Assembly (NCBI GenBank): GCA_964347325.1
Contig: CAYFYA010000004.1
Location: forward strand, 2,383 to 66,382
Reading direction: 5' to 3'
DNA from: an uncultured Methanomassiliicoccales archaeon
Lineage (GTDB): Archaea > Thermoplasmatota > Thermoplasmata > RBG-16-68-12 > JAJISG01
DNA length: 64,000 nt
In this document: piece after piece, positions 12,531 to 43,915 of the stretch
Numbering within the stretch: the stretch's first letter is position 1
How the letters are laid out: every line of letters begins with the position of its first letter
The notes under the pieces: model-generated
What the model was told of the DNA's origin: nothing
Databases searched by the model: none
What the model saw: the letters and a program-made list of their open reading frames with translations, nothing else
Position numbers and translations under genes: made by a program

Positions 12531-12557
12531 GTCCGCCCCTTCATGTCTGACCCAGAA

Positions 12558-19630: not shown

Positions 19631-19634
19631 CCCC

Positions 19635-20483: not shown

Positions 20484-20484
20484 C

Positions 20485-21576: not shown

Positions 21577-21606
21577 CGTCCCGACTAATGGGGTCGGCGG
21601 TTAAAG

Positions 21607-24284: not shown

Positions 24285-24442
24285 CTTGGCCCACCCTGGC
24301 TTGCACGTAGGCTGCAATTGGCGGGGCTGTCGCGTTAATATACCGAAGACGTCAAGTCGTGACTTCGCCTTGCAGGTCGGGGGCGCCGAGGAAGCGTCCA
24401 AGATCCCACAGGCCTGCTCAGCAGGGGGAGGTGAGTTGAACC

Positions 24443-26271: not shown

Positions 26272-28218
26272 TTGAGGGCTTTCGTGATCAAAGACCTGGA
26301 ACTCCCTGAAGGGAAAGCCATCAAGGTCGCGAAGGGAGGGCCGGAAGCCCTGCGGAAGGTTCTTACACTATTGAGCAAGCGTGGCTTCACAGGATATATC
26401 AAGATTGAGTCGAAAGCGGGCAGGGGGACTGCGTTTCTGGTCCTGAGAGACGGCAGCCGGGCCATGACCCTCTACTACGGGCCCGACGGCTTCCTCACGG
26501 GTAAGGCGGCTCTCCCTGGCTTCAAGGATCTTGCCAAGGACAAGGACACCCTGATAGAGGTCCACACGAACCAGACTCTTGAGCCCTTGCTGGAGAGCCT
26601 CCCGAAGGGCCGGGGGAAACCTTCGCCTCCAGGGATGGGCGCTTTCAAGCGGAAGCTGGAGGAGTGGAAGGCCCAGGGACACGATGTAGCAGAGCTGGAA
26701 GGCAAGATGGGTCAGAGCCTGTCAAAGGTCATCAAGGCGTTTGCGGAATACAAGGAAGGGATGAAGGCACGGGAGGAGGACGAGGCAGAGGGCGCCAAGC
26801 TCATCGAGGAAGCCAAGTTCGAGCTTCTAACAGAGGAGCCTAAAGAGGAGCCGGAAGTAGCGGTCCCGGAGAAAGCAACGGCTCCGAAACGCAAGAAACC
26901 TCGCGCAAGGAAGAAGTCGACCACGAGGAAGGAGGCCGCAGAGAAGAAACCGGCGGCAAAGGAAGCCGTGGAGGCTGAGGCGGTCTCTAGGGCCCCAACT
27001 TCTCCTGACACGGGCATGCAGGACAGATACACCTTCGACACGTTCATCGTGGGAGACAGCAACCGTTTCGCCCACGCTGCCTGCACGACGATCTCCGAGG
27101 GCTCCGTTGATCCGTACAGCCCCCTGTTCCTGGTCGGTGGACCAGGACTCGGCAAGACACATCTCCTCCACGCCCTCGCCCGGCAGTTCGAGAAGAGGAA
27201 CCCGGACGCAAAGGTAACATACCTAACTGCCTCGCAGTTCCGGGACGAGATGGAGAAGGCGTCGAATGGGGGTCATTTGGCGGACTTCCGCAAGTCCCTC
27301 CTGGAGAAGGACATTCTTCTCCTGGACAATGTGCAGGATCTCGAGGGCAAGCGGAAGGTTCAGGAGGAGATCTTCTCGCTCTTCGAAGACTTCCATCAGA
27401 AGGGTAAGCCGATAGCCCTAGCGGCCGATCGCCGTCCCTCAGAGATGAGCGGCCTCGACTCTCGGCTGATCTCCAGGTTCGAGTCCGGTCTGGTTGCAGA
27501 CCTCCAGCCTCCCAACCCCGAGATAAGAATGGGCTTCCTACGAGGTCGGTTAGACGCCAGAGGGGTCTCCATCCCCGAGAGGGTGACGAAGTACCTTGCC
27601 GACAGGTATACCTTCGACCTACGAGAGCTGGAGGGAGGGTTGAACAAGGTCCTGGCCTACTCCAAGGCCACCAACAAGCCCGTCAGCCTGTCCCTTGCCA
27701 AGGAGGCGCTTGGTGCACCGCCGCCGAGTACACCACCCCAATCGCACGCATCCCTCGCCTTCGAACCAATCCCCGGGCACAGCTACCTGTGCAGAGAGGA
27801 GAGAGGAGACTCTCCCTATCGCATGTTCGCCAAGAGGATTCGGCACGTCAAGGGACTACTCATAACGAGGACGAATCCTTCGCGGGTGAAAGAGACTCAC
27901 GGTTTGGAGGGCGCCGAGATTCTCTGGTTGACGGACAAGTCGGAGTCCTCTGAGAGTACCGTGGGCCCCGTGTTGGAGAGGCTGATGTACAAGTTGGAGA
28001 GCTTCATGATCACTGGGGGTCAGGGCATCATCCTCCTGGAGGGTGTGGAGTACCTCAAGAGTAACAACGGCTTCGAGTCCGTTCTGAAATTCGTTCGTCG
28101 CCTCGTCGACGAGATCTCAGAGAGCGACTTCACATTCATACTGACTGTGAACCCAGCCACCATCGAGATGCGGGAGCTGAAGATACTGGAGAACGAGCTG
28201 GAGGCCTACCCCACCTAG
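26272..28218 (+). CDS. Three-part protein: N-terminal uncharacterised domain, K/E-rich linker, DnaA-type AAA+ ATPase module, C-terminal DUF835-like domain
   Basis: DnaA domain III signatures: RYTFDTFIVGDSNRFAHAA, Walker A GGPGLGKTHLLHA (27136..), Walker B DILLLDNVQDLEGK, SRLISRFESGLVADLQPPNPEIRMGFL, and sensor II DLRELEGGLNKV. The C-terminus (GHSYLCRE...GLLITRTNP...ILWLTD...IILLEGVEYLKSNNGFESVLKFVRRL) matches my memory of DUF835. The start is uncertain (TTG 26272 or GTG 26284). Confidence 0.75.
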   Translation: MRAFVIKDLELPEGKAIKVAKGGPEALRKVLTLLSKRGFTGYIKIESKAGRGTAFLVLRDGSRAMTLYYGPDGFLTGKAALPGFKDLAKDKDTLIEVHTNQTLEPLLESLPKGRGKPSPPGMGAFKRKLEEWKAQGHDVAELEGKMGQSLSKVIKAFAEYKEGMKAREEDEAEGAKLIEEAKFELLTEEPKEEPEVAVPEKATAPKRKKPRARKKSTTRKEAAEKKPAAKEAVEAEAVSRAPTSPDTGMQDRYTFDTFIVGDSNRFAHAACTTISEGSVDPYSPLFLVGGPGLGKTHLLHALARQFEKRNPDAKVTYLTASQFRDEMEKASNGGHLADFRKSLLEKDILLLDNVQDLEGKRKVQEEIFSLFEDFHQKGKPIALAADRRPSEMSGLDSRLISRFESGLVADLQPPNPEIRMGFLRGRLDARGVSIPERVTKYLADRYTFDLRELEGGLNKVLAYSKATNKPVSLSLAKEALGAPPPSTPPQSHASLAFEPIPGHSYLCREERGDSPYRMFAKRIRHVKGLLITRTNPSRVKETHGLEGAEILWLTDKSESSESTVGPVLERLMYKLESFMITGGQGIILLEGVEYLKSNNGFESVLKFVRRLVDEISESDFTFILTVNPATIEMRELKILENELEAYPT

Positions 28219-28307
28219 GCGGTCGACCTCCAGCCTCCCAGTTCTTGTCAGCCGATGGAACTAGGTAAAGATGCTAATAAGGTCCGGTAACAGAGTTCCC
28301 TGAAGCC

Positions 28308-29006
28308 ATGGGCATGATTCCGACCTACGTTATGGGTCTGGACGAGGCCCTGGGCGGTGGCATTCCTGAGGGCAACATCGTCCTCCTGTCTGGGAGCCCG
28401 GGGACCATGAAGACCTCCCTCGCCTTCAGCATTCTCTACCACAACTCCCTCTCGGGCCGCAGGGGTTTCTACATCACCCTCGAGGAGCGGAGTGAGGACC
28501 TGAGGGCCACCATGGGAAGGATGGGTATGGGCGACGTCCGTCGGGGGGACCTGTATCTACTGGACCTAGGCAGGGTCAGACTCGAACTCTCTGACGGTGA
28601 GATGCGGGGGGACTGGTTCGCCATCCTGCAGGGAATCATAGAGGATGCTGTTACCATTTCGGGCTACTCTCTCCTCGTCTTGGACTCTCTGGACTCCCTC
28701 TACGCCCTGGACGTCGCCCCTCATCCTCGGAGGCAGCTCTTCCACCTCTTCGGATTCCTGAAGGAGTTCCGAGTCACGACTTTCGTCATCTCCGAGATAC
28801 CCTTCGGTTCGCAGCGCCTAACTGAGCACGGGGTGGACTTCCTGGCGGACGGGATAGTCTTGCTCAGGCAGTTTGAGTTTGGCGAGTCCGATGTCCAGCT
28901 CAGACTTCGTTGTGTCAAGATGAGAAAGGTGGCTCACGATCGCGGCTACTTCACCCTGGAGTTCGACAACGGTAGGTTCGCGGCAACGAGGGCCATCACG
29001 GACTAG
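28308..29006 (+). CDS. Single-domain KaiC/RecA-superfamily ATPase (FlaH/ArlH-like)
   Basis: GLDEALGGGIPEGNIVLLSGSPGTMKTSLA (Walker A), ITLEERSEDL, and Walker B LLVLDSLDSL. 232 aa. Confidence 0.8.
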   Translation: MGMIPTYVMGLDEALGGGIPEGNIVLLSGSPGTMKTSLAFSILYHNSLSGRRGFYITLEERSEDLRATMGRMGMGDVRRGDLYLLDLGRVRLELSDGEMRGDWFAILQGIIEDAVTISGYSLLVLDSLDSLYALDVAPHPRRQLFHLFGFLKEFRVTTFVISEIPFGSQRLTEHGVDFLADGIVLLRQFEFGESDVQLRLRCVKMRKVAHDRGYFTLEFDNGRFAATRAITD

Positions 29007-29008
29007 CT

Positions 29009-30466
29009 CTAGACGCGCCTCTTGAACAACTGGAGGTATTCCAGGGCCTCGGCGTAGCCTCCCTCTTTGACGCTTGCGCTGGCCTGCTTCAGAAGCCCGA
29101 TTAGCTCGTTCACGTCACGCCCCTGCATCTTCAGCTCCATGACGGTCTGCCTGGCCCTCTTCATCTCATCTGCAATTCCCTGTTGGATCGACTCCGTCGC
29201 CTTACGTCGTGCCGTGGCGGCTAGGAGGGCTGCGTTCTCCCAGTTTCCCTTCCTCAGGGCCGCCTTCCCCTGATTGAGGACCTCCTTCACTCCGACGACG
29301 CTCACTCCAATCTGGGTCAGGTCGTTGACAAGCTCTTCCGCAGCCCTTAGGGCGTACCTAGCCTCGCTCTGGCCACTCGACTTGGAGGCCATGTCCTCCC
29401 TTGCCAGCTGTAGCTTGTCGAAGGCCTCGCCTACGCGCCCCTCCTCCAGCTGGCCAATGGCCTCCTCTAGCAGTGCCTCGGCAACGGGGTACGTCCTCTG
29501 CTTCGCCTTCTGCTCCTTGAGTTCCTCCCTCTGGACGTCCAAGCTCTGCGCTATCTGGAGGGCAACCGACTGTTCCATGGTGATCCTTGCCTGCCACGCC
29601 AGCTTAACGGCGTTCACGAGATCCCTCTTCCTTGCCCTCTGCACCGCAGCAGCAACGGCCCTCTGGGTATTCTCTACAGGCACGTGCAGCCTCTTGGCCA
29701 AGGTTACGAGCGCTTTGAGACCGCTAACCTCTCTGTGGAGCGTTGTCTGAAGGTGACGTGGGTCAGTGATCGTAGCCGCTTCACGCCGCTTCTGTTCGTC
29801 GTATTTGGCCATGATTGTTTTAACCAGGTTCCCCTCAGGGGTGCGACGCAGCGTTGAGGTCCCAGTGCGGGTGAGGGAGGTAGATCTCCCGCCCCCTTCA
29901 GGGACCCCCACGGGCTGCATCTCCAGGGGGGGATGCCTAGCCTCCAAGGATCCCGACGTCTGATCCACGAACCGGACCCCACACTGGGAACACTGAGCAG
30001 CCTCGACGGAGACGGCCGAGCCACAGACTGGACAATCGAAAATCCCTTCTTCGGCGAACAGGGCTCCACACGACGAACACTTGGAAGCGCTCTCATCTAC
30101 CTCTGCCCCGCACCCAGGACATTCAAAGGTGAGTCCCTCCTCTCCATCCTCTTCCCTGCCGAGGACGTCCTTCTCGAGAACCTCTAGCTCCAGCTTCGGC
30201 TGGTCTAAAGGTTCGTCAGGTATGTCCAGATCTAGGTCATCGAGGCCGTCTGACACCACACTCTTGGCGGGCTTAACCTCATCCCCGCCTAGGATGCTGG
30301 CCATCAGATCGTCCAGCGACTTCGAATCTCTGATGGCTTCGATATCGTCATTGGTGTCCTCTGCGTCGAAGAGAGACGTGTCTGTCCCACACTTTGGGCA
30401 GATGACCTGATTGCCCGCCAGTTCAGTCTCGCAGATGGGACACCTATTCCCCTGCTCGGAAACCAA
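29009..30466 (-). CDS. Cytoplasmic protein with three CxxC-x10-CxxCG zinc ribbons, an acidic linker and a roughly 290-aa helical-repeat C-terminal region
   Basis: The ribbons are CPICETELAGNQVICPKCG, CPGCGAEVDESASKCSSCG and CPVCGSAVSVEAAQCSQCG. The C-terminus is all-helical with repeated A/L/E/K-rich hairpin-like units. Confidence 0.65.
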   Translation of the reverse strand: MVSEQGNRCPICETELAGNQVICPKCGTDTSLFDAEDTNDDIEAIRDSKSLDDLMASILGGDEVKPAKSVVSDGLDDLDLDIPDEPLDQPKLELEVLEKDVLGREEDGEEGLTFECPGCGAEVDESASKCSSCGALFAEEGIFDCPVCGSAVSVEAAQCSQCGVRFVDQTSGSLEARHPPLEMQPVGVPEGGGRSTSLTRTGTSTLRRTPEGNLVKTIMAKYDEQKRREAATITDPRHLQTTLHREVSGLKALVTLAKRLHVPVENTQRAVAAAVQRARKRDLVNAVKLAWQARITMEQSVALQIAQSLDVQREELKEQKAKQRTYPVAEALLEEAIGQLEEGRVGEAFDKLQLAREDMASKSSGQSEARYALRAAEELVNDLTQIGVSVVGVKEVLNQGKAALRKGNWENAALLAATARRKATESIQQGIADEMKRARQTVMELKMQGRDVNELIGLLKQASASVKEGGYAEALEYLQLFKRRV

Positions 30467-30565
30467 CCAGTGTCACCTCGGCGGTGCCGAGGCGATTCTA
30501 GGCCAACGTGGTCTTAAATAACTCTCTACAAGATTTCGAGATATGATAAGGTCTCATAAGAGATA

Positions 30566-31345
30566 ATGAAGACGGAACGGTTAAGTCGACTCGCCAGGAC
30601 GTTCCCTCCAAAGGGTCACGGCGATCTTTCCATGTTCAGAAATTCCATTCCTGGCTTGGACCGCGTCTTCAAGACCGACGTTGAGCCACCGAAGGTCGTC
30701 CTGGTCACCGGACCTCCCGGCTCCATGAAGTCCGCCTTCACCTATACTCTCATGTCCCAGTACCTCAAGAACTCGGGGGAGTTCGGGCTCTACACCACCC
30801 TGGAGGAAACCGTTCACTCCCACCTGAAGAACATGGAGAGCCTCGGAGTGGAGATCTCCCTGAAGATGCAGCTCTCCGACTTCACCGACCTGAGGGAGAT
30901 CGATCAAGTGATGGAGGAGGACGACCAGACCGACTACATCACCTTCATCGAGAAGATGATAACCCACTACAGGAAGAGCCACGGCGACCGATTCACCGTA
31001 TTCGCCCTAGACTCCCTCGGAGCCCTCTACAGCCTCCTGTCTCTTCAGGGGGACATCAGGAAAAGGATGTTCTACTTCTTCAAGATGCTACGAGACCACG
31101 GCCTCACGTCTCTCGTACTCATGGAGCGCTCCCTAGGCGGTGAGAGCCAACTTCTCGGCAACGAGGGTTTCCTGGTCGATGGCATCATCATGTTGGGCCT
31201 CGATCGGAGCAAGGGCAAGATCGTCCGCTACATTCAGGTGGAGAAGATGCGAGCCTGCAAGCATAGCATGGAGAAGCACCTTTTGGAGGTGAGCGACAAC
31301 GGCCTCGTGGTACTCGGTCCGATCTTCGATTCCTCCGACCTCTAG
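30566..31345 (+). CDS. Single-domain KaiC/RecA-superfamily ATPase (FlaH/ArlH-like), paralog 2
   Basis: IPGLDRVF...VVLVTGPPGSMKSAFT (Walker A), TTLEETVHS, and Walker B VFALDSLGAL. An alternative start lies at M23 (30632). Confidence 0.8.
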   Translation: MKTERLSRLARTFPPKGHGDLSMFRNSIPGLDRVFKTDVEPPKVVLVTGPPGSMKSAFTYTLMSQYLKNSGEFGLYTTLEETVHSHLKNMESLGVEISLKMQLSDFTDLREIDQVMEEDDQTDYITFIEKMITHYRKSHGDRFTVFALDSLGALYSLLSLQGDIRKRMFYFFKMLRDHGLTSLVLMERSLGGESQLLGNEGFLVDGIIMLGLDRSKGKIVRYIQVEKMRACKHSMEKHLLEVSDNGLVVLGPIFDSSDL

Positions 31346-31443
31346 CACTCTCCCGCGGCCTAGATTCTCACCTCTGAGATTGATGGGAAAATCTACTTAA
31401 GTCGAATGAAAGAAGTCTCTGAGAACTGAGGAAAGGTGAGGCC

Positions 31444-32499
31444 TTGGCTGCAGAACAGGGAGAGGTCTGGGATCTGCTCCAGAACAAGGTCGCTGAACTG
31501 AAGGACCTTGAAAACGAGCTCAAGGAGCGAGAGAACAAGATCGAGGAGGAGCGGGCCTCAATCGGCTCCAAGATGGAGAAGATTCAGGCGGAGCAGGAGA
31601 AGCTGGCGAAGGAGAAAGCCTCCTTCGATTCCCTGCAGAAGGGCCTCGAGGCTCGAGACCGCGAGATAAGCCAGAAAGAGTCGGACATCGAGAAGCAGAG
31701 GAAGTCTGTCGAAGGCATCAAGACCGAGGCCGATGCCAAGGTAAGACAGGTCGACGAGCGCCATGAGGCCCTCCTGGCGAGGGAGGAGGAGCTAGTCCAG
31801 AAGGAGGAGGCCCTGGCCAAGGAGGCAAACGAGATCGTGGCCCTCAAAGAACGCATGGTGGTGAAGGAGCAGGAAATCGCCCAGTTCCACGAGAACTTGA
31901 AGAGCTTCGTGGAGGAGTTCTCTGGCAAGACCCAAGATTTGGCGAACCTCGAGGAGCAGGTCACCAAGGAGAGACAGGCGGTCGCCGCGGAAAGGGAGCG
32001 ACTCGCCAAGGAGGCCAAGAGGCTCATCGATCTCGAGAGGAAGATGCTCAAGGAAGGCGAACTTCCCGAGCAGCAGATTGATGTTCCCCAGCCGGAACCC
32101 GAGGTTCCCGAGGAGGTTCCCCCGGAGGCACCGCCCGAGGAGGCGGCGGAGGCCGAGGTGCCTGAGGGGCAACCCGAGCCCGAAGCACCTCCCGAGGAGG
32201 CGGAGGAAAAGGGAAAAGAGAAGAAGGGCAAAGAAGAGGAGAAGGAGGCCCCTGAGCCCGGGGACGGTGAGATTCTCTGTCCCGGTTGTGAGACCCTCAT
32301 ATCCGCTGACGCCGTCATCTGCTACGCCTGCGGTTATCAGTTGAAGGAAGGCAGTGAGGAGGAAGAGAATGAGATCCCGTGCCCTGCCTGCGGCACTATG
32401 ATCAGTGCCGACGCCGTGATGTGTTACGCCTGCGGGCAGCCGATGGGCGAGCAGGAACAGAAGAAGAAGGGGCTCAAGAAGATCCTCCGGCGGAAGTAG
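31444..32499 (+). CDS. Coiled-coil protein with a P/E-rich linker, two C-terminal CxxC-x10-CxxCG zinc ribbons and a basic tail
   Basis: TTG start after GGAAAGGTGAGG. About 210 aa have heptad-like E/K-rich sequence. The ribbons are CPGCETLISADAVICYACG (32278..32334) and CPACGTMISADAVMCYACG (32380..32436). The tail is KKKGLKKILRRK. Confidence 0.65.
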   Translation: MAAEQGEVWDLLQNKVAELKDLENELKERENKIEEERASIGSKMEKIQAEQEKLAKEKASFDSLQKGLEARDREISQKESDIEKQRKSVEGIKTEADAKVRQVDERHEALLAREEELVQKEEALAKEANEIVALKERMVVKEQEIAQFHENLKSFVEEFSGKTQDLANLEEQVTKERQAVAAERERLAKEAKRLIDLERKMLKEGELPEQQIDVPQPEPEVPEEVPPEAPPEEAAEAEVPEGQPEPEAPPEEAEEKGKEKKGKEEEKEAPEPGDGEILCPGCETLISADAVICYACGYQLKEGSEEEENEIPCPACGTMISADAVMCYACGQPMGEQEQKKKGLKKILRRK

Positions 32500-32618
32500 C
32501 CTAAGCCACTTGATTATATTCCCTGAGAATCGCTAAAGAACGTATAAATACGGTCCTTAGGGAAGCTCACCCCCACGCATGCTCAACGGGGGACGATGAC
32601 TATTCTGGCCATGGCGCG

Positions 32619-35600
32619 TTGGATCCGGGGGTCGATGTCGTGACGCAATCCAGAGGAGCTCGTCAGCCGATCGTCCTTTCCATTGTTCTCGCAGCTTCTC
32701 TCCTGCTTGGAGCAGTCGCGGGATTATTCGCCTTGAAGACCGCGTCTGCGTCCATAGTCGTCATCAATGGGGATTGGACTGTCTCGGGCACAGACAACAC
32801 TTACGACGGTGTCATCTTCAAGGTCGACGGCAACGTCACCATAGAGTCCGGAGCATTGCTGGAGATTGCGAACGGCGGCCTGACGTTCCTTCAGGACGAC
32901 TCCCACACCTACACCCTGGACATACAGGATGGCGGATCAGGCCACGGTTCTCTGGTATTGGAGAACAGCGTCCTAACCACGGAACCTCTTCAGATTGATG
33001 TCAGCCTGCGGTTGGAGGTCGCCGTGGCGGGGACCCTGATCCTTCGAGACGGCTCATTGGTGAAGCACCCTGGTAACATAACCTCGTCCGGAGACGCTAT
33101 AATCGAGGTCCGGGACTCCACGGTTAAGGGCTTCGACAGCGGCGAGATCGATGGTGTAGTGGCGGACACCGACGCCAGCGACGATGCACCCTCCCTGTCG
33201 TTCTCCAGCACATCTGAGGTCCTCATTGTCGACTCGATCATCAGCGGGCTCTATGAGAACAATGCGGACCCTCGTCCCAACCCCCTCTATGACATCCGCG
33301 TGCAGGACTCGGCGACTTTGACCATCATAGACTCCTACGTCGGTATCGATTATCATCCGGGCGACACGACCCATAACACAATCTCTGCCACGGGTTCGTC
33401 ACGAGTCTACATCTTCAACATGAGCCTGGATGAGGACCAATCGAGCCTAGCCCAACCCGTCGACTGGCTGCCGGCCTTCGTTACGGCCTCCAGTGCAGAG
33501 GTCTACATACACCGCTGGCTGGAAGCGAAGGCGGCCGATCGTTTCGGAAACGGCGTACCCAGTGCCTACATCGAATCCCGTGTGCTCCCTGAGGGACTCC
33601 TAGCCTACTACCCCCGGAACGGTGGATCCAACGTGCCGAGCCAGGATATCCTAGATCATCTGGGGGCCAGCTCATCCGACTTCAACGTTACAGGATCCGA
33701 CGGACGGGCCCTCATACCCCTTCTTACAGAGTGGATCAACAGTTCTGTAGACCAGACCGCCCCGAATTCCCACTTCATCGGCAACTACCGCATCCGGGCG
33801 AGCTTCGGCGGCGACGCCTCGGTCAGGAACGTCTCCTTCCAGGCTTATCCGGCTCTGGGTTCCAGCGTCAACACCGAAAGTCTGACTGTCAACATCGACT
33901 CCCTCGTGTGGCCCGCTCAGGACACGACTTACATCTGGTCGTCCACGATCAACATCGACTTCGACCTGCTTCTGGACGGCAACCTACTGATTACGGGGGA
34001 CGCAACCATCGATGGGTCTCAGCTGTTCATCCTTCAGAGCAACATGGATTCGGGTCGTCACTACATAATGATCGAGGGTGGCGGCAGCCTCACCATAACG
34101 AACGGTGGCCTATCCAGCAACCTGCCCCTCGTAGTGTACCTGCAAGATGGCGCCCAACTATCCACAGATAACGCCACTCTGCAGTTGAGCACGCCCGCTG
34201 GTCGGGGCATTGTATATGGTGAAGACTCCTCCGTTATCAGCCTCAGGGGCGGCTCCCTGGAGGGTGACCTTAAGGCCCTGGGCAACAGCGCCTTCATCAG
34301 GGAGGTTAGCCTCACCAACGCCAATATTACGTACGACACCTCGGGGATCTCATACCTCTGGGATCCCGTCTTTGAGGAGAATGTGGGACTCTCCTTCCTG
34401 AGTGACGACGGCGATGTGGGTACTCTGGACTTCGACATTAGGAACGCGACGGTGGATGAGAGCCTCAACGATAGCTTCGTGTTCCAAGGGACTCAATATG
34501 CTCAACTCACTAACGTCACCTTCGAGACGGGCGGCTTCTGGTGGACGGACAGGATTAGCGATAGTGCCAAGATCGGCGTCTACTGGTGGCTGTTTGTGGA
34601 GAGCCTGGACGCTGTGGGGACCACCGTGCGAGAGTCCAACATCACCCTGCAGCGGCTCAATCCCGTAACCATGCAGTTCTCGCTGATTCCAACTCCAGGC
34701 CCTGACGATCTGTACATGGGCAACCCCCAGCCTACTCACATCGAAGCCCCGGAAGGCGTGTTCCTCTACAGGGCCCTATCGCAGGAGCGGGTCCAGTCAC
34801 AGGGGTGGGCCAACAGCACATACCTCGCCAACGGTTCCAAAGTGGTTGACGCTACCACCTACTACGCCGACGCCAACGAGACGGTGGCCGTTGGGGGAAA
34901 CTCCAACCTGGAGGTCACCTTCACTGCCCTTACGCCAGCCTTCGAGATGGCTGAGCTGACCTTCCTCGGAGCCAATGGGACGGCGGACACCCAGCCCGTT
35001 GACCTCTCCCTGGACATCAGAGCCAGCGTCCAGAACGACGCGAGCATCGGCTTCTCGGGCGTCACCGTTCACTACTACCGGGTAGATGTGGATGCGAATG
35101 ACGATGGGGTGATGGACAACCCACCGGATGACTACGCACCCTTCCTCCTCGGCGAGCAGAACATCACGGTGGAGGCTCAGAGCACCTTCGTTGCGGCGAT
35201 ATCCTGGACCCCGGAGGATGTGGGGACTTACCTGATCTCCGCGGTAATAGACCAGGATGATCGATACCCCGAGTTAGTCGAGACCAATAACCTAATGAAG
35301 GCCACGCTGGAGGTCACTGCATGGCCTGACCTGAGTATCACCGAAGACGATGTCGATGTCACTCGAGTGCCCGTGGAGGATGGTGACACCCCTGTCCAGG
35401 TCAGGGTCGAGAATCTTGGCGTATCAACTGCCATGGGCGCGACGGTGGAACTCTACGACAACGGCAGTCTCTCCGACTCCACCCCGGTTAACATCGTAGC
35501 AGGTGAGGCTGGGTCGGTAGTCCTAATATGGACTCCCACTCCTGCAGGCAACCACACCATCACCGTCAAGGTCGACAGCCTGAACGATACGGCCGACAAC

Positions 35601-37046: not shown

Positions 37047-37110
37047 GTCGCCCTCGCCCTTTGTACGCACTCGTCGTCTCTCAGAACTTAATCATCCACA
37101 GCAAAGCGAG

Positions 37111-38796
37111 TTAGACCGATCCCAGCTCCGCACCCACGATCCTCATCATTTCCTCGGGATCCTTGAAGTATGCCGAGGCGATTCGGGCCACCTCTTTGTA
37201 GCTGGATACCCCCGTGCGACGCATGTACTCGAAGAGGTCCATCCGCCTCTTCACCTCCTGTTCCATCCTCTTGGGGGTCCAGTTACGGGCGGTCTGTATC
37301 TTCTCATAGACGTAGCTGTGACCGCTGAAGCTGAAGGTGTCGTCCGCCGGATTCCAGGTATAAGCGGAGTTGGTGATGAGTTCGTTGGACTCCGGGTCGA
37401 CGCCGATGACTTCGGTCAAAGACTTCACTCGGCGGACCATTTCGGTGCCGACCTTCACCTGAGACTGGAGCAGGACGATGTCCAGGGCTGCCACCAGGGC
37501 GCGGGGGAGGTTGATGGGATCGTTCTCCAGCCTGTGGACCATGGATTGCACGTCATCCGCGTGGAAGGTTGTATAGGCGCTCTTCCCCGTCGCCATGGCC
37601 TGGAAAACTACGTAGGCTTCTCCCCCCCGAACCTCGCCGACCATCAGGTACTGAGGCCTCTGACGAAGGGCGGCGGACAGCAGGTCGAACATGTCGATTT
37701 CACCCGCCATACGACCGCTGGCAGTTGTCCCACCGAAACCGTGGCGCGTCAGGGTGGCCACCCAGTTCTCGTGGGGAAGATTCAGCTCCCGCGTGTCCTC
37801 TATGCTGACGATCTTCATCTGAGGGGGGATGAAGAGCAGAATGGCATTCAGCGTGGTGGTCTTTCCGCTTGCAGTCCCTCCACAGATGAGCATGGACTGT
37901 CCGTTCTCGATGGCTAGCCACATGTAAGCCATCATCTCGGGACTCATGGTGAGGTTATCGATGAGGTCCAGGGGGGTGAAGGGGTTCTCTCGGAAGCGCC
38001 GAATCGTGAAGCTGGAGCCCTTCTTGGTGACGTGCTTCCCGAGGGTCGCTTGAAGCCTGGAGCCGTCGGGGATGGAGGCGTCAAGCATTGGCTGCGCTAC
38101 CGAAATGTGTTTCCCGCACCTCTGGGCTAGCCAGATGACGAAGCCGTCCAGTTCTTCGTCGGTGTCGAACTTCAGGTTGGAGGGCACGGAGCCGTACTTC
38201 CGGTGATAGATGTAGAACGGGACCTTGACGCCATCGCAGGATATATCCTCCACCTCCGGGTCGATCATAACTACGTCAATGGGTCCGTACCTCACGAAGT
38301 CCCTCACGACGTAATACATGATTCTCTCCTTGGAGACCGGATGGAGGGTTACGCCCAGATCCCTGAGGAGCTGCTGCACAGAGCTCCGGAGGTAGGACTC
38401 TCTCGTTTCGGAGTCCATCTCCTTGGTCATCTCCAGGTTCTCGATGATTAGCTCTTTCAGGACGCCCAGCAGCTCGGCTTCATCGCCGGTCAGTTTGGGC
38501 TCGATGACCTCGTAGAAGTGCTGGTTGGAGAAGTCATCGTAGAGAATCCTCACGTAGGAGTAGTTGTCGATGATGGGATCTATCTCCATCTCCTTCATGT
38601 TGGGATTCGTGACGGGTGGGATTTCCGTGATATTGCCAGCCACGATTTCCTGACGACCTCCGCCTCGCGGTGCCTTGACCTTAAGCCCCTTATCACCGAG
38701 CATGCGGGAGTACATCCTGCGCTTGAGGCGCTGGACGACTCCAATTTTGCTGGCCATCGGACGTCGACGTTCCAGCGTGATTGAAGGCCTTGACAT
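37111..38796 (-). CDS. Type IV filament assembly ATPase, FlaI/ArlI-PilB (GspE/VirB11) family, paralog 1
   Basis: Walker A CGGTASGKTTTLNAIL, Asp box IVSIEDTRELNL, Walker B/His box RQRPQYLMVGEVRGGEAY...TTFHADD. Confidence 0.88.
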   Translation of the reverse strand: MSRPSITLERRRPMASKIGVVQRLKRRMYSRMLGDKGLKVKAPRGGGRQEIVAGNITEIPPVTNPNMKEMEIDPIIDNYSYVRILYDDFSNQHFYEVIEPKLTGDEAELLGVLKELIIENLEMTKEMDSETRESYLRSSVQQLLRDLGVTLHPVSKERIMYYVVRDFVRYGPIDVVMIDPEVEDISCDGVKVPFYIYHRKYGSVPSNLKFDTDEELDGFVIWLAQRCGKHISVAQPMLDASIPDGSRLQATLGKHVTKKGSSFTIRRFRENPFTPLDLIDNLTMSPEMMAYMWLAIENGQSMLICGGTASGKTTTLNAILLFIPPQMKIVSIEDTRELNLPHENWVATLTRHGFGGTTASGRMAGEIDMFDLLSAALRQRPQYLMVGEVRGGEAYVVFQAMATGKSAYTTFHADDVQSMVHRLENDPINLPRALVAALDIVLLQSQVKVGTEMVRRVKSLTEVIGVDPESNELITNSAYTWNPADDTFSFSGHSYVYEKIQTARNWTPKRMEQEVKRRMDLFEYMRRTGVSSYKEVARIASAYFKDPEEMMRIVGAELGSV

Positions 38797-38804
38797 AGTG
38801 ACAC

Positions 38805-39803
38805 CTACAGCATCTGGAACCCAACGACGGCGATCAACAGCATGACGAAGGAGTGACGCAGGCCATTAACGATCTTCCCCGTATCCAGGATGCCAGCAAG
38901 GATGCCGTCGCCCATGGCATGGACGATGACGGCGATGAAGAAGGCCACCTGGACGTTGAAGATGATCTCCGGTATGTTCTGGGGCAGGGGACTCTGGCCG
39001 CCGAGGAGACTCCCGGAATCCCCCTCGCCGAGCTCCGCCGCCGCCTCCTCCATCTTCGGGAGGAAGGTGACGCCCAGGATCCAGATCGTTACGATGAAGA
39101 CGGCGAAGGAGATGTAGATGACCGCGATGTAGGTGCTCATGGTGATCCGACGCTCGTCCTCTGTGAGCTGGACCTCCTTGGCGTCGTGACTCACCATGGT
39201 CAGCACATCGGCCACCTCCCCGCCCGCGTCACTGGCTTTGATGATGATGGCTACGACCCTCTGCACCAAGGGCGTCTGGACCCGCTCTGCGAATAGCCGC
39301 AGGGCGTCTGTGGCGGGTACGCCCCACTCTATCTGGGCCGACATCTTCTTGATCTCGTCCGTGAGGACTCCGTAGCGGCCCTGGGCGGCGACCACAACGG
39401 CCTCTGCGAGGGTCATTCCGAATCTCCCCGCCTCCGCCACGTCCCTCAGGAAGTCGGGGAGTCTCTTCTCTATGGCGCGGATTTTCTTCTGCTCAGCCGC
39501 CATGTAGAACCCGTAAGGCCCGATGGCGGCCATGAGCCCGATGGCTAGAAAGTTGAGAAACCTGCGAATGGGATGCTCTGCGGTGTCCGCCACTCCGTCG
39601 CCGTCTAGGTCGAATCCCGTCTCGGGGTCCAGGGGCTTGAAGGAGAGGTCGAGGACATTCAGGAGGTTGAGGACGGCGATGCCGATGAAGATAACACCCA
39701 GGAAGATGCTGATTGTCTTGACGACTCGCTTCTTGTCCTTCCTCACGTAGATGGCCTGGCGTGCCTCCTCGAGCTCCTTGGCCACTCCCTTCAGCCTGGC
39801 CAC
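38805..39803 (-). CDS. FlaJ/PilC/TadC-like platform protein, C-terminal T2SSF half
   Basis: LPDFLRDVAEAGRFGMTLAEAVVVAA...YGVLTDEIKKMSAQIEWGVPATDALRLFAERV is a T2SSF-type cytoplasmic domain followed by TM helices. The GTG start immediately follows the TAG of the upstream ORF in the same frame. Confidence 0.75.
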   Translation of the reverse strand: MARLKGVAKELEEARQAIYVRKDKKRVVKTISIFLGVIFIGIAVLNLLNVLDLSFKPLDPETGFDLDGDGVADTAEHPIRRFLNFLAIGLMAAIGPYGFYMAAEQKKIRAIEKRLPDFLRDVAEAGRFGMTLAEAVVVAAQGRYGVLTDEIKKMSAQIEWGVPATDALRLFAERVQTPLVQRVVAIIIKASDAGGEVADVLTMVSHDAKEVQLTEDERRITMSTYIAVIYISFAVFIVTIWILGVTFLPKMEEAAAELGEGDSGSLLGGQSPLPQNIPEIIFNVQVAFFIAVIVHAMGDGILAGILDTGKIVNGLRHSFVMLLIAVVGFQML

Positions 39804-40862
39804 CTACCTCGCCTCCTGTTCCTGGTTCCACATGACGAATATGAAGCCGAACTGGGACAGCGGTATCATGAGACCAACGATGACGTAGAGGAGGGTGACC
39901 ACGAACCCGGCCTGGCCCTTGCTGATGAGGGCCATTATTGCCATTATGACAACCAGGAAAAGAGGGAAGGCGACGACGACCGTAACGAAGCTCTCCGCCA
40001 GGAGGCCGAGGGTCTCCATCCGCTTCTTCATCTCCAGCTTGTCCTCCTTCTCGAACTGTTCGGCCTTCATCACGAAGTAGGGCTTCATCTGGCCCCCAGA
40101 GGTTGCGGTGGTCACGACCCCCTGGAGAAACTCCTGGAACTTGACGCTAGGCGATCGACCGGCTGCCTTCTTGATGGCCGTAAGGATGTCCTCCCCCAGG
40201 AGTTCCGTATCCCTGGTTATCCACTCCGCCTCCTTCGCGATCTCGCCGTACACCTCTTGCTTGGAGAGCTCTCGGAAGATCACGTCGACGGGGACCTCGG
40301 CCGAAGCCATGGCGGATATGAAGGACATCGCTCCCGTGAGCTTCCGGTCGATTAGACGGCCTCGCCGCTTCGCCCTGGATGCTGGTATGCCCCTGTAGAA
40401 GGGCTCCAGGCCGAAGTAGACTGCCTTGGTCAATAGTGCAGGGACCGTGGCGAGGACTGGGGGAAGGATGATGAAGGGAATCAGGGGCCAGCTGAGGATG
40501 GCGAACAGGAAGAACGCCAGCGTGCCGGAGGCTGCCATGGTGCCCATGGCGACCAGCACCACTGCGGCCTTCCCCATGGCGACATACTCCTCGGGGCGGA
40601 GGCGCATGTGGGCCTTGAGGAGATCCTCCTCCAGGTCCTCGTCGACCTTACCCTTGCTGGTGCCACCCATAAGCCTCCAAGCAAGCTGCTGGAAGGGCGA
40701 CAAGCTGAGGTAGCTCGGCTTCGCTCCTGCCGCTAGCCTCACCAAGTGGGGTGTAGACCTCTTCTTGACGGTCTGCTGCGTCGCCCTGACCTCGGCCTCT
40801 CGGCGAGCTTCCAGCCTGTCCAAGACGCTGCTGGCCTCACCCCCCAAGGAGGTCACCTCCAT
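39804..40862 (-). CDS. FlaJ/PilC/TadB-like platform protein, N-terminal T2SSF half
   Basis: AMSFISAMASAEVPVDVIFRELSKQEVYGEIAKEAEWITRDTELLGEDILTAIKKAAGRSPSVKFQEFLQGVVTTATSGGQMKPYF is the FlaJ/PilC signature. The ATG at 40862 gives a 26-nt overlap with the upstream ATPase. The track start at 40994 lies inside that ATPase gene. Confidence 0.75.
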   Translation of the reverse strand: MEVTSLGGEASSVLDRLEARREAEVRATQQTVKKRSTPHLVRLAAGAKPSYLSLSPFQQLAWRLMGGTSKGKVDEDLEEDLLKAHMRLRPEEYVAMGKAAVVLVAMGTMAASGTLAFFLFAILSWPLIPFIILPPVLATVPALLTKAVYFGLEPFYRGIPASRAKRRGRLIDRKLTGAMSFISAMASAEVPVDVIFRELSKQEVYGEIAKEAEWITRDTELLGEDILTAIKKAAGRSPSVKFQEFLQGVVTTATSGGQMKPYFVMKAEQFEKEDKLEMKKRMETLGLLAESFVTVVVAFPLFLVVIMAIMALISKGQAGFVVTLLYVIVGLMIPLSQFGFIFVMWNQEQEAR

Positions 40863-42468
40863 TGGCTTCCAGGGTCTTCGCACTGGCCCAACCCATCTCC
40901 CTTCGGACCCTCGAGACGGTCTCCTCTGGGTATTGGTAGTAGCCGACAACCACTTTGGAGATGTCACGGTAGTCCATGATGTCCTTTTCCACAAGGTACC
41001 TGAGCATGTCCACCCGGCGCTGGAACTCCTCGTCCATCTCCTCGTGCGTCAGGTTCTTCATCTCCATGATTTCGTCGAAGAGGAAGCTGTGACCCTTGAA
41101 GGTGAAATCATCCGTCCTCTGGTCCCACTCGTAGACCGTGTTCGTGATTAGCTCGTTGGTCTCTGGCTCAAAACCGACTAGCTCCACAATCTGCTTGATC
41201 CTTCGGACGATGTTGGTCCCAACCCTGACCTGGGTCTGGACTATGACGAAGTTCAGAGCCGTCAGGAGGATACGAGGTGTGTTTATGGGCGGGTTCTCCA
41301 GCCTGTTGACCATGGACTTGACACTGTCGGCGTGCATGGTGCTCATGGTCGGGTGTCCCGTGGCCATGGCCTGAAACATGGTGTAGGTCTCCTTGCCGCG
41401 GACCTCGCCAACAATGATGTAGTTCGGCCTCTGCCGTAGGGCCGCCCGGACCAGGTCGTACATGTCTATCTCACCCGGTGCCTTCCCGTCGGCCCCCCGC
41501 TCCCCCGTGCCGCTGCGAGTACTCCCTGGTATCCAGTTCTCGTGGGGGAGGTTGATTTCACGCGTGTCCTCAATGCTTACGATCTTCGCTCCGGGACGGA
41601 TGAACAGGGCGGCGCTATTCAGGGAGGCAGTCTTCCCGGCGGCGGTACCTCCACAGACCATCATCGACTTGCCATGCTCTATAGCCAGCCAGATATAGGC
41701 CAACATCTCGATGGAGGCAGTGTTGAACTTGATGAGCTCCACGGGGGTGAAGGGCTTCTCCTTGAAGCGTCGGATGGTGAAGCTGGAGCCCCGGGTAGTC
41801 ACCTCGCGGGCGTAGGTCGCCTGGACCCGGTGGCCCTCTTGGGTCGTCCCGTCCAGGATGGGATTCGCCACAGAGATCGACTTCCCACACCTCTGCCCAA
41901 GGCTGATGACGAAGGAGTTCAACGATTCGTCATCGTCAAACATCACCGTCGTCTTGATGGACTCGTACTTCTGGTGGAAGACGAAGATGGGGACCTTGAC
42001 GCCGTCGCAGCTCACGTCCTCGATCTTGTAGTCGTTGAGGATGACGTCACACGGCCCGTAGCCGACGAAGTCTCGGACGATGTAGTAGATTACCTTGTTC
42101 TTAGACCGGTCATCCAGACCGATGTCCCGGGACTTCACGAAGCTCTCCACGCTCTCCCGGAGGTACTCCTCCTTGTCCTTGAGGCTCTGAGCGTGGAAGC
42201 TGTATGACAGAGTCCTGACCAAGGAGTCCTTCAAGAGGTCAAGAAGCTCCGTCTCCCGGCGATTCAGTTGAGGTTCCCAGGTCTCGTAGACGTACTCGCT
42301 GTCCGTCTTGTAGAAGAGCACCCTCACGTAGCTGTAGGGAGCCTTGATGGGGTAAATCTCCACCTCCTCGACGTTCTCCTCCGTCACGGGTGGCACGGGT
42401 GTAAGCTGCGATCCTCGGCCAGGGATCCAGACGGCCCCCTTCTGCATGGCCCCCTTTGGTAGCTTCAC
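40837..42468 (-). CDS. Type IV filament assembly ATPase, FlaI/ArlI-PilB family, paralog 2
   Basis: Walker A CGGTAAGKTASLNSAAL, IVSIEDTREINL, and RQRPNYIIVGEVRGKETY...STMHADS. GTG start at 42468, with an alternative ATG at 42447. Confidence 0.88.
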   Translation of the reverse strand: MKLPKGAMQKGAVWIPGRGSQLTPVPPVTEENVEEVEIYPIKAPYSYVRVLFYKTDSEYVYETWEPQLNRRETELLDLLKDSLVRTLSYSFHAQSLKDKEEYLRESVESFVKSRDIGLDDRSKNKVIYYIVRDFVGYGPCDVILNDYKIEDVSCDGVKVPIFVFHQKYESIKTTVMFDDDESLNSFVISLGQRCGKSISVANPILDGTTQEGHRVQATYAREVTTRGSSFTIRRFKEKPFTPVELIKFNTASIEMLAYIWLAIEHGKSMMVCGGTAAGKTASLNSAALFIRPGAKIVSIEDTREINLPHENWIPGSTRSGTGERGADGKAPGEIDMYDLVRAALRQRPNYIIVGEVRGKETYTMFQAMATGHPTMSTMHADSVKSMVNRLENPPINTPRILLTALNFVIVQTQVRVGTNIVRRIKQIVELVGFEPETNELITNTVYEWDQRTDDFTFKGHSFLFDEIMEMKNLTHEEMDEEFQRRVDMLRYLVEKDIMDYRDISKVVVGYYQYPEETVSRVRREMGWASAKTLEANGGDLLGG

Positions 42469-42497
42469 CTTCCTCTTGCGGTGGGTCAGCGCCAGTA

Positions 42498-43496
42498 CTA
42501 CACCTCCAGCGTAGACCCGCGTCTACCCACCGCGATGCTCAGGTATGCGTAGTTCACCGAGACCTTAGCGATGGGCCTGGTGGGGGGGTTGTGGACGATC
42601 TCGAGGCTGATGTTGTGAGTTTGGCCAGACTCGGCCCTCGAAAGCGTGTAGTAGGGCGTGGTTACCGTCTGACCGGCCGGGGATTCGAAGTACTGGTAGC
42701 CGGGCCCGCCGAAGTCGGAGTCCAGGACGGCGAAGGTTAGGCTCAAGGTGTTGTTCAGGTGCTGGAACCAGGCGTTGCCGTACCGGGTGGTATGGTTAAT
42801 CCACAGTGAGGACTGAAGAGCGGTAAACTCCTGAATGTCGAGCACGAGGAGCTTGCTGTGGATGCCCTCGGTTCCAGAGTCGGCGACGTTCCCAGAACCG
42901 ATGATGTTGACCATGGTGAGCGCCACCTCGATCCCATTGGTGGCGTTGAGGATGGCGAACTGAGGATCGACTCGGACCGCTTCCCCTGCAGACTGGGACA
43001 TTAGGATGCCTCCGCCTTCATAGATGAGGGAGAAGGGCACGTGGTATCGGTTCCTGACCTCCAGGACGACGTTGCCTGCGGAGGTCTGATTGACCGTGTA
43101 GACGGAGCTCTCGATGGCGTACTGGAACTGAATGGTCCAGGGGGCCTGATCGCCGCTGCCCGTGAGCTGGCCGATGGAAGGCCCAGAGAATACTGGGAGT
43201 CCAGGAGTGCCTAGCTGGACTGCGGTGTAGGTCTCCGTAGGGATGTATGTGCTCCCGGAGGTGGCGGCAACCTGGGCCGAAAGGATCTGGGTATCAACGG
43301 AGCTCTTGAAGGACCCAAACTGCCCAAAAACCGTACTCTGGTGGGCCGCCTCCGTCTCCTTCCCCCAGACGGGAACGTACTGGTTCACGAGGAGCGACAG
43401 GAACGTCAGGACGACTAGGAGGGCCATGATTGTGCCGACGGTGGAAGCCACTCCATCTTTGTCCCGCCGGAGCTTCCGAGGCTTCAGACAAGGCAT
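42498..43496 (-). CDS. Archaeal type IV pilin-like protein with a class III signal peptide (332 aa)
   Basis: The N-terminus MPCLKPRKLRRDKDG/VASTVGTIMALLVVLTFLSLLV has a basic n-region, a Gly at the putative PibD/FlaK cleavage site, and then a hydrophobic helix. The remainder is beta-rich and Ser/Thr-rich. It is the first gene of the ATPase/platform operon. Confidence 0.65.
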   Translation of the reverse strand: MPCLKPRKLRRDKDGVASTVGTIMALLVVLTFLSLLVNQYVPVWGKETEAAHQSTVFGQFGSFKSSVDTQILSAQVAATSGSTYIPTETYTAVQLGTPGLPVFSGPSIGQLTGSGDQAPWTIQFQYAIESSVYTVNQTSAGNVVLEVRNRYHVPFSLIYEGGGILMSQSAGEAVRVDPQFAILNATNGIEVALTMVNIIGSGNVADSGTEGIHSKLLVLDIQEFTALQSSLWINHTTRYGNAWFQHLNNTLSLTFAVLDSDFGGPGYQYFESPAGQTVTTPYYTLSRAESGQTHNISLEIVHNPPTRPIAKVSVNYAYLSIAVGRRGSTLEV

Positions 43497-43656: not shown

Positions 43657-43742
43657 GCCGCGGTAACTCAGTTGGGAGAGTGCCAGACTGAAGTCGTTTG
43701 GCAGACATCTGGAAGTCGCCGGTTCGAGCCCGGCCCGCGGCA
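43657..43742 (+). tRNA. tRNA-Phe (anticodon GAA) with a 13-nt intron at 37/38
   Basis: GCCGCGG acceptor pairs with CCGCGGC. The anticodon arm is CCAGA-CTGAAG[TCGTTTGGCAGAC]A-TCTGG. The T arm is GCCGG-TTCGAGC-CCGGC. Confidence 0.85.
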
Positions 43743-43774
43743 CTTCTGTTGGCACGACAAATTGTGCCGCAATG

Positions 43775-43806: not shown

Positions 43807-43915
43807 CCCGCCTTAGCTCAGTTTGGCTAGAGCGGCTGACTGTAGTGGGTTCCCGGAGGTTTCCGGTACAGCCGCTGGGATCAGCAGGTCCCCGGTTCAA
43901 ATCCGGGAGGCGGGA
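43807..43915 (+). tRNA. tRNA-Tyr (anticodon GTA) with an intron of about 34 nt in the anticodon loop
   Basis: CCCGCCT acceptor pairs with AGGCGGG. The anticodon arm is GCTGA-CTGTAG[34 nt]A-TCAGC. The T arm is CCCGG-TTCAAAT-CCGGG. I could not draw a clean BHB for exact 37/38 borders, so the borders are approximate. Confidence 0.8.

Follow-up and report, generated by a model that had tools for sequence, protein, structure and literature searches.

The closest described relatives of the locus analysed here, which lies in a 64,000-nt stretch of DNA (the window) on contig CAYFYA010000004.1 (GCA_964347325.1) of an uncultured Methanomassiliicoccales archaeon, are archaeal type IV pilus (T4P) machines with two ATPases. 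In Cuniculiplasma divulgatum the CdiP operon carries the genes for two ATPases, CdiPE1 and CdiPE2, and for a platform divided between CdiPFa and CdiPFb; the authors term the second ATPase enigmatic, place the pilins about 500 kb from the machinery locus and associate the machine with a bona fide PilA-type pilus filament (PMC12448462, ISME J 2025). In two Aciduliprofundum genomes the genes for an arCOG02911 pilin, FlaI, TadC, TadC and FlaI form an operon that converges on a "Zn-ribbon domain containing protein" of 1503 or 1720 amino acids (aa) with two transmembrane (TM) segments, and a signal peptide is flagged for the 1503-aa copy of A. boonei, assigned to arCOG01917 (Makarova, Koonin and Albers, 2016, Suppl. 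Table S4, PMC4858521). The main text of that study speaks solely of "two distinct ATPases in the same locus" (PMC4858521), and all that is listed for arCOG01917 is that the family is widespread and uncharacterised. According to our analysis, the locus in the window is a CdiP-type archaeal T4P operon with a linked giant membrane protein that carries a zinc-ribbon tail, and a KaiC-like ATPase and a coiled-coil zinc-ribbon protein usually adjoin this giant protein and the operon. These three proteins form the core of an accessory module that is hitherto undescribed as a set in the literature searched and that probably regulates or anchors the pilus machine.

We named the genes of the locus g1 to g11 in window order and numbered the loci of relatives from L001 onwards. 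An earlier note on this DNA had delimited 11 open reading frames (ORFs), all of which (11/11) were recovered at the same coordinates by an ORF check, and their domains were confirmed with Pfam. The pilus operon lies on the minus strand and opens with g11 (42498..43496, -), a pilin-like gene recognised by its position and by the class III signal pattern in its orthologues. It is followed by g10 (40837..42468, -), a FlaI/PilB3-type pilus ATPase (ATPase2; T2SSE 3e-32 and PilB3_C), by g9 (39804..40862, -) and g8 (38805..39803, -), the N-terminal CdiPFa/TadB-like and C-terminal CdiPFb/TadC-like platform halves (Pfam T2SSF 2.5e-12 and 7.7e-17), and by g7 (37111..38796, -), which encodes ATPase1 (T2SSE 7.8e-33 and PilB3_C), has an N-terminal extension and is always the ATPase beside g6. 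The gaps and overlaps between these genes are as the earlier note described, except that the g9 ORF, which runs to 40994, probably starts at M45 (40862) because its orthologues are about 350 aa long, so that its overlap with g10 would be 26 nt instead of 158 nt. The view that this duplicated filament core is a new composition had to be given up, since two ATPases with a split platform are the published CdiP layout and Aciduliprofundum has them likewise.

The two ATPases, g7 and g10, are 50% identical, and two paralogous FlaI-type ATPase genes stand in one operon in all 38 complete loci (38/38). Among the orthologous ORFs (66 of g7 and 53 of g10), nearly all retain Walker A, Walker B and the His box, and the near-universal presence of these motifs in both proteins rules out that one ATPase is a degenerate regulator. 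The Asp-box pattern was found in 64/66 g7 ORFs and 41/53 g10 ORFs, some ORFs being truncated at contig ends, and the exceptions without full motifs may be such truncated ORFs. The order of g7-type versus g10-type genes is kept even in a Methanomethylophilaceae metagenome-assembled genome (MAG; L160). The N-terminal extension of g7, which ATPase2 lacks, consists in most lineages of a coiled coil of about 60 aa and, behind it, a conserved basic stretch, KKRYF.RLLG.KG.KVKAP, and is shorter in the clade of the window (compare orthologues such as L012 4394-6208).

The platform genes g9 and g8 align with positions 26-243 and 315-541, respectively, of the 555-position ArlJ model (NCBIfam). Using the C. 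divulgatum CdiPFa,b sequence recovered from the supplement of PMC12448462, BLASTP matched g9 to its residues 39-313 (35.7% identity, E=7e-39) and g8 to its residues 360-599 (30.6% identity, E=1e-32), and no pairwise similarity was found between g8 and g9. A recent duplication of the platform is ruled out by this lack of pairwise similarity and by the mapping to opposite halves; judged by the alignments, g9 and g8 are the N and C halves of a single platform and not duplicates. The window operon resembles CdiP in combining two paralogous ATPases with N-half and then C-half platform genes in one operon and in lacking the major pilin at the machinery locus, and both organisms belong to the class Thermoplasmata. 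It differs in that platform identity is just 31-36%, in that the operon opens with a 332-aa pilin-like gene, and in that no KaiC-like, zinc-ribbon or giant surface-protein partners are described in the CdiP paper. The CdiP filament has been observed, whereas the window machine is known from the genes of an uncultured lineage alone.

A class III signal peptide of the form R.D..G/VASTVGTIMALLV... is present in g11 of the window and in all orthologues, across which the N-terminus R.D..G/VASTVGTIMALLVVLTFLSLLVNQYVPVW is kept. The window copy gave no Pfam or NCBIfam match, a relaxed Pfam scan included, and distant orthologues match PF23960 (DUF7289). By position, g11 is the equivalent of the arCOG02911/DUF7289 minor pilin and a putative member of that arCOG. 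With PilB3_C in both ATPases and a class III signal on g11 at the arCOG02911 position, the operon bears the signature of the euryarchaeal clade-2 T4P of PilB3/PilC3 type (Makarova et al., 2016). Among the window ORFs tested, no prepilin peptidase, archaellin or PilA-type pilin was found, which upholds the earlier note for the archaellin and the prepilin peptidase, and no CdiPB-like pilin was found in the window; PilA-like genes adjoin g11 in L034 and L036. A prepilin peptidase and a major pilin outside the locus are normal for archaeal T4P, and by analogy with Cuniculiplasma and Haloferax both would be encoded away from the locus here.

The likeness to A. boonei extends beyond the operon, as the gene order is identical and a giant zinc-ribbon protein is convergent there as well; we liken it to g6 by annotation, architecture and position. 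No KaiC or coiled-coil gene is listed beside the A. boonei giant, unlike in the window, and a 3.2-kb stretch without annotated proteins lies there.

The linkage of the operon to its plus-strand neighbours was scored in two samples, in the first by synteny based on hidden Markov models. Scanning one genome per GTDB species with ATPase1 as anchor yielded 69 loci, all of them (69/69) from uncultured Thermoplasmata/Thermoplasmatota MAGs, and scanning JGI metagenomes with the g6 tail as anchor yielded 80 loci. In the ATPase1-anchored sample, the operon was complete in 38/38 loci, g6 lay within 3 kb after g7 in 33/36, g5 and g4 came after g6 in 20/21, and g1 came after g4 in 8/13. In the tail-anchored sample, the last g6 and ATPase1 were no more than 3 kb apart in 37 of 41 loci, and g5 and g4 were upstream of g6 in 30 of 39. 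The linkage of the plus-strand block to the operon, which the earlier note had supposed and for which this check was set beforehand, is thus borne out in relatives by the placement of g6 beside ATPase1 in both samples. Linkage is strongest for the operon and g6, followed by g5 and g4, then g3 and g1, and finally g2.

Beyond g4, FTHFS or GyrA replace g3 and g1 in other clades. In L161 the genes for GyrA, KaiC, a 302-aa protein and a g6-like protein are followed by an operon that is inverted onto the g6 strand, and in L162 a g6-like gene within Aciduliprofundum-like flanks (eIF5A, arginase) converges on the operon. The adjacency of g6 and operon outlasts both this turnover of the flanks and the inversion, which argues for selection and not for mere inertia. 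In the Methanomethylophilaceae MAG (L160, GCA_029982165.1), GyrB, GyrA, a coiled-coil protein and a g6-like protein converge on an operon in the order DUF7289 pilin, ATPase2, platform A, platform B and ATPase1. The coiled-coil protein upstream of this g6 is g5-like and zinc-free, and directly upstream of the pilin gene (20541-22292) stands a 583-aa fusion of a long coiled coil and a degenerate KaiC-like domain (Pfam KaiC and DUF7504; P-loop GPSFVGKE). KaiC-like proteins therefore recur beside the operon in distant lineages. As a side observation, L160, which lies in Methanomassiliicoccales, carries the full two-ATPase operon; the 2016 census of archaeal T4P reported no secretion ATPases in Methanomassiliicoccus.

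The most tightly linked partner, g6 (32619..37046, +), encodes a giant type I membrane surface protein of 1475 aa (Pfam CARDB 4.9e-28, MG2 and DZR). Its signal peptide is followed by an ectodomain of about 1200 aa, which holds the three CARDB domains and MG2, then by a single TM helix and a tail on the cytoplasmic side. Residues 1-727 matched no Pfam family, even in a relaxed scan, and the beta-helix that had been proposed for this protein has no profile support. A class III (pilin) signal on g6 is ruled out, as its orthologues have an n-h-c region of the Sec type that closes with AxA. In one soil lineage (L070, L072, L096, L106, L117, L122, L125, L128, L129 and L132) we observed two g6 paralogues of about 940 and 1530 aa, both with the tail; between them, on the opposite strand, lies a 570-620-aa Pilin_N protein with a class III signal.

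The cytoplasmic tail of g6 comprises a domain of about 150 aa (36420..36878, +). The elements of the module run in the order TM helix, GLGKLVECGECG double zinc ribbon, helical segment (FQEWW..EDWL..EEEMRK) and third zinc ribbon. Its length is constant and its identity 50-77%, versus roughly 25-35% between ectodomains of the same lineages. An exhaustive phmmer search (E<=1e-30) found the tail in 152 clusters at the 50% identity level. In full-length-looking proteins (900-4499 aa) it lies roughly 150-330 aa before the C-terminus, and the shorter matches listed (down to about 150 aa) look like fragments. It defines a cytoplasmic domain common to hundreds of giant archaeal surface proteins. The double zinc ribbons (DZR) of g6 and g3 align with an hhalign probability of 98.6% at 37% identity, and Pfam finds zinc ribbons in g5, so that the zinc-ribbon module that the earlier note had seen in all three proteins was indeed found to be shared. 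Searches of PDB sequences with the g6 tail, g3 and g11 returned only generic zinc-finger or ribosomal zinc-ribbon matches.

Behind the tail domain, g6 ends in a basic-hydrophobic motif, RPILKKIVKKPF (36993..37028, +), which occurs in nearly all listed g6 orthologues, including that of the Methanomethylophilaceae MAG, and is missing from two listed ORFs (L066 and L024). The motif, exemplified by PILKKIVKKPF and VVQKKVIKKP, is often doubled, with an acidic end behind it. One and the same short motif of this type closes both g5 and g6 in almost every orthologue examined. The conservation of the g6 tail and the motif common to g5 and g6 suggest that both proteins share a cytoplasmic partner.

These features bear on a reading in which g6 is a structural envelope protein or adhesin whose placement or turnover is served by g4 and g5, the pilus genes being merely clustered and co-regulated with it. 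Such a role would suit a large type I membrane protein with CARDB and MG2 domains, and it would suit the envelope of the Thermoplasmatales, the closest cultured relatives, which are without S-layer (surface layer) genes and have in its place an unordered glycoprotein layer of about 20 nm. Archaeal T4P loci commonly hold S-layer-like or large adhesin-like proteins (2016; 2026 preprint), two g6 paralogues exist in some lineages, and the window holds further large surface proteins at 44352-47753 and 1-1644. The strongest constraint, however, is on the cytoplasmic tail of g6 and not on its ectodomain, and a specific intracellular partner fits this better than a passive coat. Moreover, the adjacency is specific to the ATPase1 end of the operon and outlasts inversion and turnover of the flanks. 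We therefore regard an envelope protein with merely clustered pilus genes as quite unlikely.

Upstream of g6 lies g5 (31444..32499, +), which encodes a cytoplasmic coiled-coil protein with two C-terminal zinc ribbons (Pfam DZR/Zn_ribbon_3). Coiled-coil matches cover its residues 8-203 (NCBIfam), and its terminal motif GLKKILRRK (32470-32496) is kept in orthologues, for example as LKKILRRK or VKKVLKKKVI. The next gene upstream, g4 (30566..31345, +), encodes a single-domain KaiC-like ATPase (KaiC PF06745, 4.6e-34). Because its orthologues measure 237-240 aa, g4 probably starts at M23 (30632), giving 237 aa. With 63-76% identity it is as conserved as the motor ATPases, versus 22-33% for g5 and about 30% for the g6 ectodomain, and among 120 listed 90%-identity clusters its homologues are 68-90% identical to the query.

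The P-loop of g4 reads GPPGSMKS, and Met or Leu replaces Gly in all orthologues, so that g4 and its paralogue g2 have a Walker A of the form GxxGx[M/L]K[S/T], versus GxxGxGK[S/T] in all aligned PDB homologues. The catalytic LEE is intact in both, as is the Walker B Asp. The fold of g4 is clearly that of the KaiC/RecA superfamily, and its predicted ATPase activity is uncertain. Against the NCBIfam model of ArlH, g4 scores 35 bits (34-35 bits for g2 and g4) at a cutoff of 215, and the label FlaH-like that had been given to the KaiC proteins is sound only at the level of the superfamily.

We posit that g4 as a switch, g5 as a scaffold and g6 as an anchor or sensor act on a CdiP-type pilus motor, with g1 to g3 as an upstream layer, a proposal by analogy to which we give a roughly even chance of being right. 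By this proposal, g4 would be a nucleotide-dependent switch on the pilus motor, in the way that ArlH acts on ArlI, and g5 a scaffold of the coiled-coil type, comparable to ArlX or ArlC/D/E. The g6 tail may compete for, or share, the cytoplasmic partner of g5 by way of the zinc ribbons and terminal motif that the two proteins have in common. It would thereby tie the motor to a large protein within the exterior protein layer, and the role of g6 could be that of an anchor or stator, or of an adhesin signalling contact with a surface. In the clade of the window, g1, g3 and g2 would add a second tier, probably an input or switch layer that feeds the KaiC protein. The docking of the KaiC protein, the coiled-coil protein and the zinc-ribbon tail on the motor is a prediction open to test in cultured relatives. 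The conserved partner genes are concrete candidates for the regulators and the envelope anchor of the two-ATPase machine in many Thermoplasmatota; lineages with both machine and partner genes include Aciduliprofundum, soil and sediment groups and the Methanomethylophilaceae MAG.

Several observations weigh against such a joint machine. Each plus-strand gene is preceded by a TATA-like box and the two blocks are convergently transcribed, which makes them separate transcription units. One locus (L156) keeps g1-g3-g4-g5 although neither g6 nor any pilus gene lies within 10 kb, the operon and g6 occur with no adjacent g4 or g5 in L130, L141, L149, L162 and Aciduliprofundum, and the operon stands alone in L057, L059 and L061. 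PGK, whose function is surely unrelated, is also a stable neighbour of g1, so that part of the synteny of the soil clade is simply inherited. In some loci, unrelated genes for an MFS transporter, a methyltransferase-like protein and an SDR have come to lie between g7 and g6 (the g7-g6 gap of L012, L013, L050 and L155, as well as L063 and L161); as these insertions in the convergent gap do not separate the blocks, the junction evidently tolerates them. As for the proposed switch itself, g4 is not an orthologue of ArlH, and the replacement of the P-loop Gly leaves its status as an ATPase in doubt.

Taken together with the role of KaiC-like ATPases as general archaeal signalling hubs, the convergent units with their own TATA-like boxes, the L156 block, the lineages that have operon and g6 but no g4 or g5 and the partly inertial synteny (PGK being linked to g1 just as stably) could also mean that a pilus machine and a KaiC-centred signalling hub, for example for the envelope or the cell cycle, are independent of each other and owe their proximity to descent, with no specific tie between them. 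Yet g4 and g5 stand directly upstream of g6 in most loci although the outer flank changes between GyrA, FTHFS and g3/g1, and g5 and the g6 tail have zinc ribbons and the terminal motif in common. In addition, unrelated KaiC-like/coiled-coil fusions stand beside the same operon in L160, and in L158 the block is followed by giant proteins with pilin signals. Two independent systems therefore appear rather unlikely to us.

The L158 locus (12033-20723) deserves description of its own, since g1-g3-g4-g5 is followed there by proteins of 2323 aa and >1861 aa in place of the zinc-tailed g6. Both giants have pilin class III signal peptides together with VWA, CARDB and Big_5 domains and look like pilin-like adhesins. 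A machine that, instead of or besides assembling a pilus, displays or secretes giant surface proteins, bindosome-like or type II secretion system-like, with g6 or the giants with pilin signals as cargo or tip, would account for this replacement of g6 after g4 and g5 and for the Pilin_N protein of 570-620 aa between the two g6 copies of the soil lineage. It could also call on the 183-216 bits that g7 and g10 score against the bindosome model BasE and on the hook-like tip densities of C. divulgatum pili (PMC12448462). The BasE and BasF scores, however, are far under the cutoffs of 1000 and 1300, g6 lacks a class III signal, having a Sec-type signal and a C-terminal TM anchor, and for the CdiP machine, which is homologous, the association is with a PilA-type pilus filament. 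We consider display or secretion of the giants highly improbable.

The proposed assembly of switch, scaffold and anchor on a pilus motor recalls the archaellum, where a core of the FlaI/FlaJ type is likewise surrounded by an ATPase of the KaiC superfamily, a coiled-coil protein in the cytoplasm and a part anchored in the envelope. The counterparts would be ArlH, ArlX or ArlC/D/E, and ArlF/G, none of which is orthologous to g4, g5 or g6, and the likeness is an analogy of architecture only. An archaellum is ruled out, as g7 and g10 score 437 and 419 bits against the ArlI model (NCBIfam cutoff 550), the ArlH scores are under cutoff too, and no archaellins or ArlF/G were found among the locus genes. 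It is conceivable, if quite improbable, that the products of the accessory genes surround the pilus motor with a superstructure that resembles that of the archaellum but evolved independently, with g6 as a transmembrane stator or mechanosensor set in the exterior protein layer and a g5-g4 ring that gates the choice of ATPase. A ring of g5 and a g4 hexamer would then receive the zinc-ribbon tail and basic motif of g6 and would gate which ATPase engages the split platform, leading to a switch between extension and retraction, or to rotation. In such a structure g1, a DnaA-type AAA+ protein with an inactivated KaiC, and g3 would be the upstream nucleotide-dependent switch. If true, this would amount to a new class of regulated, envelope-anchored archaeal pilus and would account for the "enigmatic" second ATPase of CdiP.

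The locus also shows similarity to bacterial Tad/Flp systems, in which the platform is encoded as two single-T2SSF genes and the ATPase belongs to the FlaI/TadA/VirB11 branch. The two ATPases match TIGR03819 (TadA family) at 1e-44 and 2e-39, under the cutoff. Unlike Tad, the locus has two ATPases, an archaeal class III pilin signal and an unrelated accessory module, and Pfam scans of the locus genes revealed no secretin (RcpA), TadZ or TadD domains.

The remaining plus-strand block genes and g3 are peripheral, clade-restricted additions and not core parts, and the earlier note's inclusion of g1, g2 and g3 in the system is not supported by synteny. The first of them, g1 (26272..28218, +), encodes a DnaA-type AAA+/DUF835 protein (Bac_DnaA 4.5e-51, DUF835 1.8e-25; Pfam and NCBIfam) with an N-terminal alpha/beta domain, a charged linker, DnaA domain III with its lid and a C-terminal DUF835, a domain described as an inactivated KaiC (PMC5847659, 2018). 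Against TIGR00362 it aligns with positions 68-335 of 437 and scores 270 bits (cutoff 343.9). Its description as DnaA-like is accurate for domain III and the lid; the DNA-binding domain IV is absent and DUF835 stands in its place, which rules out g1 as a replication initiator (DnaA/Hda). Walker B reads D-N in the window copy, versus the family consensus D-D. The family comprises >120 90%-identity clusters, whose organism-bearing names are all Thermoplasmata, Thermoplasmatota or "Methanobacteriota archaeon". In JGI and NCBI records of Thermoplasmata MAGs, "chromosomal replication initiator protein DnaA" and "DnaA/Hda family protein" are widespread names for its members. To judge from the domain content, naming this DnaA-domain-III/DUF835 family a replication initiator is a systematic misannotation.

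On the opposite strand, g3 (29009..30466, -) encodes three zinc ribbons (Pfam DZR/Zn_ribbon_3), disordered linkers and a 280-aa alpha-helical repeat scaffold. A word-based search found 18 homologues of g3, and g3 was always accompanied by g1 in the loci examined; a g3-like protein lies 7 kb off the operon in L160. The helical repeat (residues 210-485) is predicted by AlphaFold2 (AF2) with a pLDDT of about 90, and the AF2 models of this domain and of the N-terminal domain of g1 are both confident. Neither model had a match in the PDB (best E 0.05 for g1 and 0.13 for g3), and relaxed Pfam scans of the g1 N-terminus and the g3 C-terminus found nothing.

The second KaiC-like ATPase, g2 (28308..29006, +; Pfam KaiC 4e-35), is present only in the closest relatives (L001, L002, L062, L068, L076, L077, L150 and L157). 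It is just 27% identical to g4, which rules out a recent duplication of KaiC, and Met occupies the P-loop position in both. The earlier statement that each core component is present in two copies or halves consequently stands for the two ATPases and the platform halves and falls for the KaiC proteins.

Much of this composition is already known: the two-ATPase machine with a split platform (2025), two ATPases per Aciduliprofundum locus (2016), the link between KaiC-family ATPases and archaeal T4P loci (PMC4858521, 2016), large adhesin-like or S-layer-like proteins in T4P loci and the nature of DUF835 as a KaiC that has been inactivated. In archaea, KaiC-like ATPases act as general hubs of signalling, as relayed in PMC5847659 from Makarova, Galperin and Koonin (2017). 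Our locus resembles such hubs in its single-domain KaiC-like ATPases, its inactivated KaiC (DUF835) and its varied partner domains, as well as in their tendency to sit near T4P and archaellum loci. We found no description of the DnaA-domain-III/DUF835 fusion, of the KaiC subfamily with a Met/Leu P-loop or of a KaiC-like ATPase paired with a zinc-ribbon-tailed giant, all of which may have been described earlier among the KaiC hubs. The literature searched likewise held no description of the pairing of a two-ATPase machine with an arCOG01917-type giant, of the g6 tail domain, of the terminal motif of g5 and g6, or of the g3/g1 add-on. The earlier statement that no described system has this composition was thus too broad, as the operon matches CdiP and the KaiC-T4P association is published, and it keeps its force for the accessory pairing.

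The GC content is even across the window (56-63%). Three tRNA genes flank the locus (24199-24285, 43657-43743 and 43807-43915). The one at 24199 was given no anticodon by ARAGORN, and the one at 43807-43915, 109 nt long and found by Rfam only, probably contains an intron. A mobile element between the tRNAs at 24199 and 43657 is ruled out by the uniform GC content and by the retention of the locus beside PGK across species.

Two genes upstream of g1, a stand-alone TackOD1 multi-zinc-ribbon protein (23105-24082, 3.9e-39) lies next to a membrane GT2/BcsA-like glycosyltransferase (21607-23100), both on the minus strand; TackOD1 has been reported inside thaumarchaeal T4P loci, and this pair is not kept beside the locus in the relatives checked. 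Divergent from the operon, 44352-47753 (+) encodes an 1133-aa surface protein with five CarboxypepD_reg and three PKD domains and a C-terminal TM anchor, and a right-handed beta-helix surface protein at 1-1644 (-) is cut by the window edge; neither is kept beside the operon in relatives. A DUF7121 protein (56750-57685, -; 9e-42) with ZapB-like coiled-coil similarity is unrelated to the locus, and an ELP3-like radical SAM/GNAT protein of the tRNA modification type (15836-17362, +) belongs to the housekeeping context.

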